From Balneolaceae bacterium (GTDB lineage: Bacteria > Bacteroidota > Rhodothermia > Balneolales > Balneolaceae), in contig CP030887.1 in NCBI GenBank assembly GCA_006969905.1, forward strand, positions 2,218,730-2,282,729: a DNA stretch of 64,000 bases. The letters are read 5' to 3'. The notes below the pieces were generated by a model that was not told where the DNA came from, ran no database searches, and worked only from the letters and a program-made list of their open reading frames with translations. The translations under genes and the position numbers were made by a program. Shown piece after piece: positions 57,925 to 64,000 of this stretch (positions are counted from its first letter, which is position 1; every line of letters starts with the position of its first letter).

Positions 57925-58401
57925 ATGAGCGATAAAAGATATTGGTTAATGAAATCAGAGCCAGATGCATACAGTATTGATGACCTTGAAAGAGACCAGG
58001 TAGAACCCTGGGATGGTATCAGAAACTACCAGGCACGGAACTTTATGAGAGACGATATGAAGATAGGAGACAAGATTTTTTTCTATCATTCCAATGCAAA
58101 CCCCATTGCCATTGTGGGTACCATGGAAGTAGCCAGTGAGCCTTATCCCGATCCTACCCAATTTGACCCGGACAATAAATACTTTGATGAGAAAAGCAGT
58201 GAGGAAAATCCGCGCTGGCAGTTAGTGGATGTAAAATTCATCCAAAAGTTTGAAAATCCGGTTACGCGTGAAGCTATGAAAGAAGAACCGGAGCTGGAAG
58301 ATATGCTTATCTTTAAAAGAAGCCGCCTGTCAATTACCCCGGTTACCGAAGCCGAGTGGAAGAAAATTCATGAGATGGCAGGGGTGAGTGTGCCTGGCTA
58401 A
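57925..58401 (+). CDS. EVE domain protein
   Basis: YWLMKSEP, WDGIRNYQARN, FFYHSN, SRLSITPV. Confidence 0.95.
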   Translation: MSDKRYWLMKSEPDAYSIDDLERDQVEPWDGIRNYQARNFMRDDMKIGDKIFFYHSNANPIAIVGTMEVASEPYPDPTQFDPDNKYFDEKSSEENPRWQLVDVKFIQKFENPVTREAMKEEPELEDMLIFKRSRLSITPVTEAEWKKIHEMAGVSVPG

Positions 58402-60013: not shown

Positions 60014-60658
60014 TTACAGTTTTATATCACAGCGGATAATATCGTGCTTTACTTCAAGCTTATATTGATCGTTTTTATCTAATATGTATTTTTCCAGTTC
60101 TTCAATGGTTGGGTAGTCACCTTTGCCAATGAATAGACGTGCATCATCAATTAGCAAAACGTGATTAAGTTCGTCATCACTGAGGATAGCGTCCAGCTCT
60201 TCGAATATCGGGCAGTTTTTATTACCCTTTGCAGTTATACCAGATGAGTAATGACCGTCCAGCCAAAATATAGCGGGTTCATTTATTTCCGGTAGTATTT
60301 TTGGAAGGACATCTCCGCTGTCACCATGCAGAATTGTAATGTGCTTATATTTTCTGAATCGCCGGGTGGCTTTATTGAACAAATCAATCCCCAATTCAAT
60401 AGAAATAATCTTACTGAATGTGTTCTTTTGTGCTTCCACCATATCTCCTAAGTAAGTACCGGTTTCCACTAATAGTTTATATTGATACTTCTCCCGGTAC
60501 TCCTGAATAGTTATCTGTTTTACAATATGAGGAGAAGGGGCTGGGCACCCGTTTTGTTTCCATTCAGCAAGCTGTTTTTGATCATTTTTTTTCTTGCGGA
60601 TATTTAATACCGGTTGAGGCATCAGGCTCTTTAAAAATCTTTTAATCTTTGCTGTCAT
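60014..60658 (-). CDS. Class I SAM-dependent methyltransferase-like protein
   Basis: LVETGTYLG, SIE, GDSGDVL, FWLDGHYS, LIDDAR motifs. Confidence 0.7.
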   Translation of the reverse strand: MTAKIKRFLKSLMPQPVLNIRKKKNDQKQLAEWKQNGCPAPSPHIVKQITIQEYREKYQYKLLVETGTYLGDMVEAQKNTFSKIISIELGIDLFNKATRRFRKYKHITILHGDSGDVLPKILPEINEPAIFWLDGHYSSGITAKGNKNCPIFEELDAILSDDELNHVLLIDDARLFIGKGDYPTIEELEKYILDKNDQYKLEVKHDIIRCDIKL

Positions 60659-60829: not shown

Positions 60830-60900
60830 TTTAAAGATGAAGAGCGGAGCGGATTCATCTTCAACGGTCTGTATATGGTGCGTTGCCGTCCAGCAGGGCT
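60830..60900 (-). repeat. Eroded cassette junction: 36-bp palindrome plus half of a short attC-like site
   Basis: 60830-60865 is 31/36 identical to 61776-61811; the adjacent GGTCTGTATATGGTG parallels GGCTCGCATATGGTG, but the partner arm is missing. Confidence 0.7.
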
Positions 60901-60901
60901 G

Positions 60902-61660
60902 CTATGATTTTTTAGCCTTTGTTATATGCTTTTCTTTATTTCTTACAAATATTAATTTGTGTCTACTTTTCGGGTTTTCACGTTGTTCGATTTCGAATCT
61001 GTCAATTGATTTAATCAGTGGTGTGAGTTTTTCAAATCCATAATTTCTAGAGTCAAAGTTGGGTTGCTTTTTCTGTATCAAACTTCCAACGTCTCCAAGA
61101 AATGCCCAACCGTCTTCATCTGATAAATCCCTAATAGTTGTTGATATTAGATTTATTTCCTTTTTAGTAATCTTATCTATTTCCGGTTCATTTGATTCTT
61201 TACTTTCTACTTTTTCTTCAGTTTGTTTCTTTAGGATTTCAATGTAAATGAATTTGTCACACGCTACTATAAATGGATTTGGAGTCTTTTTTTCTCCGAT
61301 TCCTATCACTTGCATTCCAGCCTCTCTAAGTCGTGTTGCTAATCGAGTGAAGTCACTGTCACTTGAAACAAGACAAAATCCATCAACTTTTCCGCTATAA
61401 AGAATGTCCATAGCGTCAATTATCATGGCAGAATCAGTCGCATTTTTACCTTTTGTATATCCGTATTGTTGAATTGGAGTTATTGCATTTTCTAAGAGCA
61501 GGTTCTTCCACTTGGTTAAGCCTGGTCTGGTCCAATCTCCATAGATTCTTTTTATTGTTGGGTTACCATATTTGGTAATTTCTTCCATCATTTCTTTTAC
61601 ATGAGCAGAAGGAATATTGTCACCGTCTATTAAGACAGCCATATTTGAATTTGTATTCAT
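60902..61660 (-). CDS. NYN (LabA/DUF88) RNase-domain protein with C-terminal OST-HTH/LOTUS domain
   Basis: LIDGDN, RIYGDW, KNATD, SSDSDF; GWAFLGDVG...RNYGF. Confidence 0.92.
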   Translation of the reverse strand: MNTNSNMAVLIDGDNIPSAHVKEMMEEITKYGNPTIKRIYGDWTRPGLTKWKNLLLENAITPIQQYGYTKGKNATDSAMIIDAMDILYSGKVDGFCLVSSDSDFTRLATRLREAGMQVIGIGEKKTPNPFIVACDKFIYIEILKKQTEEKVESKESNEPEIDKITKKEINLISTTIRDLSDEDGWAFLGDVGSLIQKKQPNFDSRNYGFEKLTPLIKSIDRFEIEQRENPKSRHKLIFVRNKEKHITKAKKS

Positions 61661-61680
61661 TTAGTCTTTTTAGTTATTGC

Positions 61681-61783
61681 ATATAACGTGGCTGGGCTAA
61701 GTACAGTGGTTATACCATTGAATTTAGTCCAAGTTGGGATGAGTTGCTACGCAACTTTGTACTTAGCCCAGCCACGTTGGAGA
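61681..61783 (-). repeat. Long att-like site with 21-bp perfect inverted repeat
   Basis: AACGTGGCTGGGCTAAGTACA (61685-61705) pairs with TGTACTTAGCCCAGCCACGTT (61758-61778). Confidence 0.8.
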
Positions 61784-61811
61784 TGAAGAGCGGAGCGAAT
61801 TCATCTCCAAC
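61776..61811. repeat. 36-bp gene-less palindromic mini-element
   Basis: GTTGGAGATGAA-gagcggagcgaa-TTCATCTCCAAC. Confidence 0.85.
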
Positions 61812-61871
61812 GGCTCGCATATGGTGTCGTGGCTGACGTTAGGAAGCCATGCACTATATGCATTGTTGTGC
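61805..61871 (-). repeat. Short attC-like site (67 bp)
   Basis: Minus strand: GCACAAC aat GCATATAG TG-CATGGCT loop AGCCACGACA CCATATGC gagcc GTTGGAG; has an unpaired spacer and a bulged base. Confidence 0.72.
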
Positions 61872-61880
61872 CTAGTGTTT

Positions 61881-62906
61881 TTATTTTTCTTCTTTGTATG
61901 GACCTAAAAACTTGTCCCCGTTAAAGTGAACCAAGTGGTCTGGATTATCTGCAATCCAAACTTCAGTTTCCCAAGCGATATCAGCCATAAATTGTCGGAA
62001 CTTCGGTCTGTTCAAAAATGCTGTAACATACACAATATCAGCTTTGCAGTCCTTTGTCAACTTTTGAAGTTGAATTAGCCGTAATTCACTGATTGGCCCT
62101 GACGAGTGGACAGCTTCAATTAAGTAAAGCCAATTCTTTTTCTTAGAATAGGCAATCACATCTGGTAATTCTTCGTGTGAAATTTCGAAGAAGTTCAACT
62201 TTTCAAGTTTTTCTTTCTCCAAGTACAGATATTTGTCAGAAGTGTCGCCAACATAGAGGATTTCTGCACCATGTCCATATCTTGGAAGAAAATCTTCAAT
62301 TATTGCCTTTTGTAAATCGTTGTGTTCTCCTGCGGAAAAAGTTAGCTCGCCACCCGAAGGAAGAGTCACATTAACTTTTGCTATTTCCCTTTGGCGTTTA
62401 AGTTTTTTACTGAGAGGCTCGATATTCTTGAGCTTGTCAGATACCATTTTCTCCCAATTATTTGAACCAAATTCTCTAAGAAGTTCGGCATATGTTGGGT
62501 TGATTGAATAGCCCCTTGTCGAGTCGTTGGTTGCTGAGTTTGGGCTAGATTGTAAAACGATTTCTGCAACCGTTAGCAACTTGAGGTCTTTTCTTCGAAT
62601 GTCATCATAAGAACCCGAGCTAATGTCTTCTCCAAAATGCTCGTTGACATAGATGATTATATCCCTTGTTTTCAAGGAATGACCACTATTTAAATCTTTT
62701 GCACGTTTGAAATCTGAGAGCTTTTTAATGTCACCACTTGCTAGAAACGCGATTGCCATTCTTTCCAACCTTCTCGGGGTTGAATCCAATGGAATTCCAA
62801 ATGTCTCAAGAATAAAAAGTGTGGTGTTTATCAGTTCCTGTACCTCTTTGCTTTTCTCCCTATAAGTTTTAGATTTATCGGGACTGATATACTGCTTCAT
62901 TCTCAA
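61881..62906 (-). CDS. BsuBI/PstI-family type II restriction endonuclease
   Basis: FSAGEHNDLQKAIIEDF, YVGDT, LPDVI...WLYLIEAVHSSGP, IAWETEVW; likely ATG at 62900. Confidence 0.88.
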   Translation of the reverse strand: MRMKQYISPDKSKTYREKSKEVQELINTTLFILETFGIPLDSTPRRLERMAIAFLASGDIKKLSDFKRAKDLNSGHSLKTRDIIIYVNEHFGEDISSGSYDDIRRKDLKLLTVAEIVLQSSPNSATNDSTRGYSINPTYAELLREFGSNNWEKMVSDKLKNIEPLSKKLKRQREIAKVNVTLPSGGELTFSAGEHNDLQKAIIEDFLPRYGHGAEILYVGDTSDKYLYLEKEKLEKLNFFEISHEELPDVIAYSKKKNWLYLIEAVHSSGPISELRLIQLQKLTKDCKADIVYVTAFLNRPKFRQFMADIAWETEVWIADNPDHLVHFNGDKFLGPYKEEK

Positions 62907-63906
62907 ATAGTTTTAATTGGTCGTTTTCCGTAATGACATATTGGGCTTCAAGACCGTCTGTCAAATGATTTTTGATGTTTAGTGCCAAATGATATGCGAA
63001 GTAAGGCGCAACAGCATTTCCAATTTGGTTAAACTGATGTGTTTCTGTTCCTGAGAACACAAACCAATCAGGAAAACTTTGAAGTCTCGCAGCTTCTCTA
63101 ACAGTAATTCTGCGTCTTCTCCCATCCTTTAATCGAACTCGATGCATGTCTCCTGTTGCACCTGCTAAGTTTCTACATGTCAATGTTCTTGCAGGTCTAT
63201 CTAAGTATAAGTCTCTTGGATTTATGCACTTGGAAGCCTTTTCATACTTGGCGACATATCTGTCCATGGATTCAGTAAAGAACTTAGAGTCTTCATTAAA
63301 TTGAAAAGCGAGCTCCCCTAATGCTTGACCTGCCGTTACCTTTCTATTTACCTTTTTTGGTAGGTTGATTTTTTTCTTTGACCCGATTACTATAACTCGT
63401 TCTCTGTTCTGTGGTACTTCGTAGTTCAAAGCATTCAAAAGGGCATAATTGATAAAGTACCCTAAGCTTTCAAGTTCTTCTATGACTTCCTTCAAATACC
63501 ATTTATTCTTGTAAAGCATTCCACGAACATTCTCAAACAACAGGACTTCAGGGTCAAGTTTTCTGATTGCAGATAAGAAAATTGGGAATCCATCTCTAGA
63601 ATCTTTCAAGCCAAGCTGCTTGCCACCAACACTAAATGGCTGACAAGGTGGGCCACCAATTACGACATCCGCCTTTGGGTATTCCGATTCTACTGTCAGC
63701 TTTTCGTTGAAGCATTCTCCAATCAAGTTCTTATTGTATGTCTGGGTGGCTGGTTCGTCCATTTCATAACCAATAGTTCGAAACCCATGAGCTTCGAAAC
63801 CAAGGGAAAGTCCACCGCAACCCGCAAAAAGGTCAACTACTGTTTTATTCAAATCAGAGTCCACCCAAGGCTTCAACTTTTCATTTATCTCTTCCCAATA
63901 TTCCAT
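62875..63906 (-). CDS. DNA (cytosine-5)-methyltransferase
   Basis: Motifs FAGCGG, GGPPCQPFS, ENV, QNRERV, REAARLQSFP, IGNAV. Confidence 0.95.
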   Translation of the reverse strand: MEYWEEINEKLKPWVDSDLNKTVVDLFAGCGGLSLGFEAHGFRTIGYEMDEPATQTYNKNLIGECFNEKLTVESEYPKADVVIGGPPCQPFSVGGKQLGLKDSRDGFPIFLSAIRKLDPEVLLFENVRGMLYKNKWYLKEVIEELESLGYFINYALLNALNYEVPQNRERVIVIGSKKKINLPKKVNRKVTAGQALGELAFQFNEDSKFFTESMDRYVAKYEKASKCINPRDLYLDRPARTLTCRNLAGATGDMHRVRLKDGRRRRITVREAARLQSFPDWFVFSGTETHQFNQIGNAVAPYFAYHLALNIKNHLTDGLEAQYVITENDQLKLFENEAVYQSR

Positions 63907-63954
63907 TCTCGAAAGTTACGAATTTGTGATGTGGTTTCCATTTCTTCACATTAG

Positions 63955-64000
63955 GCACAACGTGGCTGGGCTAAGTACAGTGGTTATACCATTGAATTTA
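63955..64000 (-). repeat. Second copy of the long att-like site (truncated by window end)
   Basis: 63959-64000 is identical to 61685-61726. Confidence 0.85.

Follow-up and report, generated by a model that had tools for sequence, protein, structure and literature searches.

The right end of a 64,000-nucleotide window of DNA from a Balneolaceae bacterium (CP030887.1, here contig C1; the window spans C1:2218730-2282729) raises the question of whether gene cassettes of the integron type can be assembled next to a recombinase that lacks the domain by which integron integrases are defined. A preliminary description of this window had proposed an array of cassettes with defence-type cargo for positions 60830-64000 and a mobilizing recombinase located outside. 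The observation is confirmed by our analysis and its interpretation as a genuine cassette array is supported. The window belongs to a single-contig genome of 3.49 Mb, which made it possible to read on past base 64000, and the array comprises 7.1 kb (C1:2279592-2286738), reaching from an attI crossover at C1:2286736-38 to a terminal hairpin at window positions 60835-65, with the right end of the window (60835-64000) representing its distal 3.1 kb. The explanation that we consider best as a whole, and rather probable, is that of an integron-type array with an adjacent short recombinase, integron-like in its organization but failing the test for the IntI domain.

From the platform leftwards, the elements are ordered as attI, a cassette with ParB-like and Mrr-like genes, a 128-nt unit, a cassette with an AriAB/PARIS-like gene, a second 128-nt unit, a restriction-modification (R-M) cassette, a third 128-nt unit, a NYN-LOTUS cassette and the terminal B hairpin, that is, four gene cassettes with a 128-nt cassette free of open reading frames (ORFs) interleaved between them. 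Nothing resembling a cassette is present to the left of the terminal hairpin. Read along the genes, each unit opens with G↓TT (the arrow marks the junction), and the next 6-11 bases form the reverse complement of the R'' box in its own hairpin further downstream. For the R-M cassette, such a complementarity between GTTGTGCCTAGTGT (61865-61878) and ACATTAGGCACAAC (63948-63961) had been pointed out before, and it indeed extends over 13 of 14 positions (5' end TTGTGCCTAATGT, R'' box ACACTAGGCACAA). Corresponding pairs are formed by GTTATATGC and GCATATAAC in the NYN cassette (5' end TTATATGC, R'' box GCATATAA), by GTTAGGCTC and GAGCCTAAC in the cassette for the AriAB-like ATPase (5' end TTAGGCTC, R'' box GAGCCTAA), by GTTGTGCTCA and TGAGCACAAC in the ParB/Mrr cassette (5' end TTGTGCTCA, R'' box TGAGCACAA) and by GTTGGAGATGAA and TTCATCTCCAAC in the 128-nt unit (5' end TTGGAGATGAA, R'' box TTCATCTCCAA). 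All four gene cassettes and the 128-nt unit therefore carry the signature of integron cassettes, with partners at the exact predicted junctions. The probability of finding a partner at a junction by accident is about 1/4096 per cassette (six free bases), and the complementary ends are not due to chance. Their pattern reads as the footprint of excision and insertion of circles by crossover within the AAC/GTT triplet.

The hairpins with AAC and GTT ends, which the preliminary description had placed at both boundaries of the R-M block, were likewise recovered, and both hairpin A of the 128-nt unit and the R-M site fold. The latter (61809-61878, plus strand) consists of AAC, 5 unpaired nt, a stem GCATATGGTG.., 3 unpaired nt and the R'' box, and folds with -13.2 kcal/mol (z = -2.4), its stem containing a G·T wobble and one bulged T. 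When a custom scanner was set to the geometry AAC, 3-6 nt, 9 or more pairs without interruption, 1-5 nt and GTT, it found 8 sites in 4.3 kb at the array as compared to 0.05 per kb genome-wide. We refer to these as class-2 sites. They have an internal loop of 5-6 nt on one side and 3 nt on the other and L stems in which pairing is mostly continuous over 9-18 bp, G·T wobbles taking the place of bulges; integron-type extrahelical bases are lacking, although a spacer-like internal loop exists. According to predicted folding energies, the better-folding strand is the bottom one, complementary to the cassette genes, in 30 of 37 verified class-2 sites (p = 0.0002). Comparison of the hairpins with Rfam gave only sub-threshold miRNA noise, and a scan for sigma-70 consensus sequences and terminators yielded nothing above shuffled sequences and none in attI or the 128-nt unit, the promoter rules of this phylum being outside the consensus used.

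To the right of the window, the array continues and ends at an attI-like site beside a gene for a tyrosine recombinase of 280 amino acids with Phage_integrase and SAM-like domains (C1:2286824-2287663), which is divergent from the array and starts 4.1 kb beyond the window. An IntI-like or novel recombinase had been predicted outside the window; the protein found is related to IntI, but the IntI insertion is absent. Among NCBIfam models, it is best matched by 'XerA / integron integrase' (218.6 bits, cut-off 220) and TIGR02249 (205 bits, cut-off 265), the latter in two pieces that skip model positions 180-238. In an alignment with VchIntIA (2A3V), residues 12-179 correspond to 11-178 and residues 203-276 to 245-318, and the roughly 43 residues that are absent make up the IntI-specific insertion, i.e. 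the additional domain with the I2 helix region. Judged by additional domain and profile score, the short recombinase is not an integron integrase. The catalytic motifs RLSE, KGKKDR, HTLRH, LGH and IYTH (Arg, Lys, His-x-x-Arg, His, Tyr) are kept. Neither is the enzyme XerC or XerD, for which the genome has separate genes, one XerD-like (yr178, 194 bits to E. coli XerD) and one XerC-like. In a maximum likelihood tree of 52 sequences, IntI is monophyletic (100/100), the short family forms a group of its own (98/85) and both group together (97/85), separate from XerA, XerC-like proteins and XerD. Since the short enzyme falls outside the IntI clade, it appears to represent a sister lineage and not a recent deletion mutant. 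The family is large, with 3281 representatives at E < 1e-30, many of which bear N-terminal extensions.

The point at which the array is attached is fixed and lies 86 nt upstream of the start codon of the recombinase gene. Conserved sequence begins exactly at YAAC at this very distance in about 26 loci of Balneolaceae, while the left flanks are unrelated, pointing at a fixed insertion point that has received different first cassettes, just as is characteristic of the attI of integrons. In the 45 nt past the crossover there is an inverted repeat, beginning 4 nt from AAC, three pairs of which exhibit compensatory changes among 22 sequences (covariation 0.208 versus 0.093 in shuffled alignments, 0/500; slid controls 0.03-0.07). 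Its layout of AAC, 4-nt gap and stem is that of a class-2 attC half-site, and the crossover resides outside of the repeat, which is at odds with a classical double-stranded core site. It is conceivable, if speculative, that attI also acts as a hairpin. Co-evolution of the attI motif with the recombinase tree was considered as well and proved imperfect, the compensatory pattern fitting structure better than sequence-specific binding. Another inverted repeat of attI that likewise covaries (L001 8790-8830; an example being TTGTTATTCC ... AAGGATAACATG) overlaps with the ribosome-binding region of the recombinase gene as well as with its start codon and could be a translational or binding control element.

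Four decayed platforms are found elsewhere in the genome (C1:1533049-1533300, 1975508-1975760, 2468022-2468300 and 3099850-3100128). They consist of attI and a truncated 5' end of the recombinase gene (50-150 nt) and represent three attI motif types; the 128-nt unit is found in three of them, and in two a cassette with verified signature lies next to the platform. In a second strain with an identical recombinase, the AAC of attI marks the precise start of a scaffold with 99.15% identity over 10.9 kb. This could reflect a branch of the assembly graph at the crossover, and a duplicated attI would explain it equally well. Exact look-ups of three cargo proteins in other strains found none, a result that is uninformative at 0.85% divergence.

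Homologues of the recombinase with 72-79% identity occur in about 30 Balneolaceae assemblies. The preliminary description had suggested comparing cassette order among related strains; among these relatives, gene content differs in every one, no cargo gene being common to the loci. Class-2 sites are concentrated upstream of the recombinase genes, with 54 in 232 kb as opposed to 13 in 263 kb downstream, and 34 of these 54 have a cassette-end partner of at least 8 nt. Locus L009 even features four directly abutting cassettes, each with a complementarity of 9-10 nt, and abutting chains are present in L014, too. Three short contigs labelled as metagenome-assembled genomes of Virgibacillus, Salinimicrobium and Saprospiraceae (L026, L033, L035) carry a Balneolaceae-type recombinase (73% identity); they are probably mis-binned rather than evidence of transfer.

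The genome also harbours a canonical sedentary integron at C1:988000-1001537 (L005 3000-16543), and integrons as such are thus not new to this lineage. Its integrase (C1:1000596-1001537) scores 426.5 bits with TIGR02249 and aligns with VchIntIA from end to end, insertion included, as befits an integron integrase. To the left of the gene lie at least 12 homogeneous attC sites of 84-123 nt with bulged bases and minus-strand cassettes; a solo copy of this attC is located at C1:2600913. The two classes of sites differ in several respects. In canonical attC sites, the internal loop measures 4 nt on one side only and the 3' arm shows 2-3 single-base bulges, the expected extrahelical bases, which are replaced by an uninterrupted L stem in class 2, and strand asymmetry is not evident, 6 of 12 sites folding better on the bottom strand. 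The IntI-specific helix reads such extrahelical bases (PMC4792948), and the domain and the bulges are therefore lost together. The canonical IntI arrays comprise 95 canonical-type sites in seven of eight relatives in addition to the 12 in this genome. Over nine such arrays, class-2 matches stay at background level (9 in 139 kb) and 128-nt units are lacking altogether, while the 232 kb upstream of short recombinases contain not a single canonical-type site. In 9-10 genomes, the two site classes never mix.

Further information comes from the 128-nt unit. The preliminary description had noticed an exact 42-bp repeat, and 61685-61726 is indeed identical with 63959-64000; however, this stretch is only the window-cut part of the larger ORF-less cassette. 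The latter is present in six genomic copies that are 99-100% identical, three in the array and three at about 1533, 1975 and 3100 kb, and spans 124 nt between its two AAC crossover triplets. Of its two hairpins, A comes first, with a perfect stem of 21 bp (-31 kcal/mol, z = -8.6), and B follows, and the ends of the unit are complementary to each other (GTTGGAG and CTCCAAC). The copies cease to be identical right behind ...CTCCAAC at one end and right in front of YAAC at the other. An ORF or a promoter consensus was not found in the unit. Five of nine relatives have it in up to 26 copies, either within short-recombinase arrays or dispersed but never by canonical IntI. Between genomes identity drops to 78-96%, the contrast speaking for recency, and compensatory changes are apparent in both hairpins and in the R boxes (GTTGGAG/CTCCAAC, GTTGAAG/CTTCAAC, GTTATAG/CTATAAC). 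The loops, GAGCGGAGCGAATTC in B and GGTTGGGATGAGTTGC.ACGCAAC and ATTGAATTTAGT in A, are conserved across genomes. That loops are kept while stems change suggests a sequence-specific role beyond that of a recombination site.

Which enzyme, if any, serves this array? We consider it rather likely that the short enzyme is the cognate recombinase, because of the segregation of site classes, the fixed attI and the existence of genomes that have the short recombinase without IntI. Several observations weigh against this reading. In PMC2426708, which cites Messier & Roy 2001, the additional domain is held necessary for IntI activity, and recombinases without this domain near attC sites are not counted as integron integrases (PMC4889954). 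Support for the sister placement appears moderate, as the tree is limited to 52 sequences with few outgroups. The attC of the NYN cassette is degenerate and folds weakly (z = -0.8), and attI motif types follow the recombinase tree only partly, in a clustered but imperfect way. Exact-protein look-ups in other strains gave only a scaffold that ends at attI, the array not being assembled there. Around homologues from other Bacteroidota with 42-51% identity, the custom scanner detected enrichment neither of class-2 sites (28 in 292 kb versus 22 in 238 kb) nor of cassette signatures, so that the system may be confined to Balneolaceae or the scanner may be too narrow. Finally, in a sample of 151 Balneolaceae genomes, canonical IntI was detected in 89 and the short recombinase in 24, and IntI co-occurs in 21-22 of these 24 compared to 68 of the 127 others (p = 0.0015). 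The latter finding would also fit dependence on IntI and keeps alive the possibility that real integron cassettes are moved in trans by the canonical IntI at 1.0 Mb, with the short recombinase as an accessory or unrelated Xer-like protein and the array as a satellite of the type described as CALIN, in which attC sites are clustered without an integron integrase. A full-length IntI scoring above the cut-off and its own attC array are indeed at hand, both enzymes are encoded in all nine relatives tested first, and the overall plan of AAC, unpaired spacer, stem and GTT is common to both site classes. Yet, the strict segregation is difficult to reconcile with one enzyme acting on both, as are the fixed insertion point that about 26 loci have at 86 nt from the gene for the short recombinase and the lack of the extrahelical bases that IntI uses (PMC4792948). 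In addition, two genomes of good quality, G033 (99% complete) and G095 (3 contigs), possess the short recombinase with upstream cassettes, a chain of at least four abutting ones in G033 and a single signature-verified one in G095, in the absence of IntI or any IntI fragment. We therefore judge action of IntI in trans to be unlikely.

Still less probable is that the array is an inactive fossil, the repeats of which are kept by gene conversion or by selection for another role such as RNA structure or insulation. The four decayed platforms and the degenerate NYN attC are in line with decay, but the recombinase ORF is intact with all its catalytic motifs, the 128-nt copies are nearly identical within the genome, cassette content is wholly different among relatives with recombinases of 72-79% identity, and compensatory changes preserve the structures of attC and attI. 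An interpretation as repeats of the miniature inverted-repeat transposable element (MITE) or repetitive extragenic palindromic (REP) type within an ordinary defence island, with AAC/GTT complementarity as a by-product of the palindromes, appears very improbable. Hairpin A does resemble a 95-bp element with perfect 21-bp terminal inverted repeats dispersed at six genomic places. All six copies, however, sit at attI or attC junctions and none in random context, target-site duplications are lacking and the flanks of hairpin A differ (e.g. ..TAT versus GGA..). Moreover, the 128-nt unit is delimited by the conserved AAC crossover triplets that delimit every gene cassette, too, and gene-specific variable sites complement the far end of their own cassette, which a MITE would not predict. 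We have consequently rejected a MITE/REP identity of the 128-nt unit.

If the array is served by its adjacent short recombinase, then this enzyme, and not the canonical IntI of the genome, would recombine the class-2 sites and would act on their folded bottom strand. The G·T/A·C asymmetry may favour folding of this strand and thereby replace the extrahelical bases that are read by the missing domain. Given the geometry of AAC, 4-nt gap and stem, attI may be used as a hairpin too, and an excised cassette circle would be expected to carry a junction such as ...GGCACAA↓CGGCTCGC... Recombination activity as such we infer from the sequence features described. To us, the platform looks like a second branch within the integron family, one that is so far undescribed. 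For a more specific scenario, our confidence is evenly balanced: Balneolaceae would possess a second, orthogonal integron lineage beside the canonical one, with a sister of IntI that either never had or lost early the I2/additional domain, bulge-free attC sites with strand choice by G·T/A·C asymmetry, a hairpin attI possibly recombined in folded form and a propagated empty cassette of 124/128 nt.

With sedentary chromosomal integrons such as the Vibrio cholerae superintegron with IntIA and its VCR (Vibrio cholerae repeat) attC sites or the IntI integron of the same genome, the array shares a divergent integrase gene beside attI, co-oriented cassettes that look promoterless, the presence of ORF-less cassettes and of defence cargo, and folded imperfect palindromes with AAC...GTT cores and an unpaired spacer. 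The crossover in a conserved triplet, the 5' ends complementary to R'' and the bias towards folding of the bottom strand are shared features as well. In contrast to those systems, the recombinase is short, lacks the IntI additional domain with the I2 helix region and stays below the TIGR02249 cut-off, the L stems are devoid of extrahelical bases and combine G·T/A·C asymmetry with a 5-6/3-nt loop, attI contains an attC-like hairpin, and gene-cassette sites are heterogeneous while it is the conserved 128-nt empty cassette that has been amplified. Standard tools would at best report a CALIN (PMC4889954), because no protein matching the IntI profile is within reach. Unlike a CALIN, the array is accompanied by an intact, conserved recombinase and by a conserved attI at fixed distance in many genomes, and is a complete platform rather than a degraded integron. 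Some precedent is provided by Xer systems. CTX-phi integrates as a folded single-strand hairpin via XerC/D, and pdif modules occur on Acinetobacter plasmids, i.e. folded single-stranded sites can be used, or exchangeable gene modules flanked, by tyrosine recombinases that have no IntI domain. There, housekeeping XerC/D and 28-bp dif-like sites are at work, while the recombinase gene is a dedicated one here, linked to an attI of its own, and the sites are hairpins of 55-125 nt with integron-type cores.

Integron integrases are defined by the additional domain, which is required by integron-finding tools and held necessary for recognition of folded attC sites (PMC2426708; PMC4889954; PMC4792948). 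Complete canonical integrons are known in the Bacteroidetes/Chlorobi group, e.g. in Salinibacter ruber, and Cury et al. examined 50 co-localizations of attC arrays with integrases that lack the additional domain (PMC4889954). A full-text literature search returned no account in which an integrase without this domain serves arrays of the integron type. If our reading is correct, such arrays can be built in its absence, cassette capture would not be tied to it, and the system would constitute a natural intermediate linking recombination of the Xer type with that of the IntI type. In current surveys, cassette arrays may be undercounted, being filed as CALINs or missed. Furthermore, a canonical integron with a different, non-mixing site class in the same cells amounts to a natural specificity experiment, and cassettes for R-M, PARIS-like and PD-Lambda-5-like systems would carry the idea of integrons as defence biobanks to the FCB (Fibrobacteres-Chlorobi-Bacteroidetes) group.

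The cargo was examined with PADLOC and Pfam, and three of the four gene cassettes are of the defence type. The claim of defence-type cargo made in the preliminary description stands for the R-M cassette and can be extended to the AriAB-like and PD-Lambda-5_A/PDC-M38A-like proteins, while the NYN-LOTUS protein had no defence match in PADLOC. Equally, the co-orientation reported for cargo genes was reproduced, all of those inside the window being on the minus strand. Beyond its right border lie two further gene cassettes, two further full copies of the 128-nt repeat and the completion of the copy cut at 64000. Cassette 1, separated by a non-coding stretch from the recombinase gene on the opposite strand, contains genes for a 285-residue Mrr-like and a 359-residue ParB-like protein and a 61-nt hairpin site; the former is an Mrr-type nuclease and the latter a PDC-M38A/PD-Lambda-5_A-like member of the ParB family. 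In cassette 2, a gene for a 553-residue ATPase is followed by a 109-nt hairpin site. This protein matches the fused AriAB (PARIS-type) ATPase-nuclease profile PDLC02982 (E = 3.7e-42) over residues 20-517, i.e. over nearly its full length, and is accordingly assigned to this group on profile evidence. No relative of it was found among species-representative genomes. One homologue with 89% identity has the same 5' boundary G↓TTAG.CTCAATTAT preceded by a different upstream sequence, and another with 60% identity resides within an attC-bounded cassette elsewhere. Defence cargo in integrons has precedent (bioRxiv 10.1101/2024.07.02.601686). From the cargo, we infer that the system may stockpile and exchange anti-phage modules.

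Within the window, the second copy of the 128-nt cassette (63958..64000, plus strand) is interrupted by the window end and extends to C1:2282814. Cassette 3 (61811..63960, minus strand, 2150 nt) encodes a type II R-M pair consisting of an endonuclease of the BsuBI/PstI family (61881-62906) and a C5-cytosine methyltransferase (62875-63906), and is followed by the first copy of the 128-nt cassette (61684..61811, plus strand) with hairpin A at 61685-61779 and hairpin B at 61777-61811. Cassette 4 (60865..61686, minus strand, 822 nt) has its ORF at 60902-61660, which specifies a protein with a NYN ribonuclease-type domain and OST-HTH/LOTUS; its 5' end complements its own R'' box at 60921-60929 within the 3' end of the ORF. 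The corresponding attC-like site (60863..60929, plus strand) is a hybrid, as its R'' (GTT)-end half, including the centre, matches the ParB/Mrr site and its AAC (crossover)-end half resembles the R-M site. The distal end of the array (60835..60865, plus strand) is a B-type hairpin only (AGATGAAGAGCGGAGCGGATTCATCTTCAAC), in which AAC at 60863-60865 forms the last crossover triplet, and the same B sequence also directly adjoins attI in the empty decayed platform at C1:2468 kb.

Homologues of the NYN-LOTUS protein with 80-97% identity gave more than 580 matches in Flavobacteriales, Cytophagales, Bacteroidales, Saprospirales, Ignavibacteria and Calditrichaceae, the best one (97% amino acid identity) being an Aquimarina copy. 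In these groups, the gene is not cassette-borne. The pattern points at either unusually strong conservation or wide horizontal spread. The gene was rejected as a travelling cassette, since such homologues in other Bacteroidota lack the attC and lie beside a recombinase in only 1 of 80 cases.

Between the array end and a MatE gene, a minus-strand ORF of 214 codons (window 60014-60658) is present that has no match in Pfam or PADLOC and no adjoining attC-like site. An EVE gene (window 57925-58401) is located together with MatE on the far side of the array, and a gene for dCTP deaminase follows that for the recombinase. In one relative (L016 11069-13874), the recombinase gene is followed by those for EVE, dCTP deaminase and rsmE, the platform thus residing in the same neighbourhood, albeit a rearranged one.

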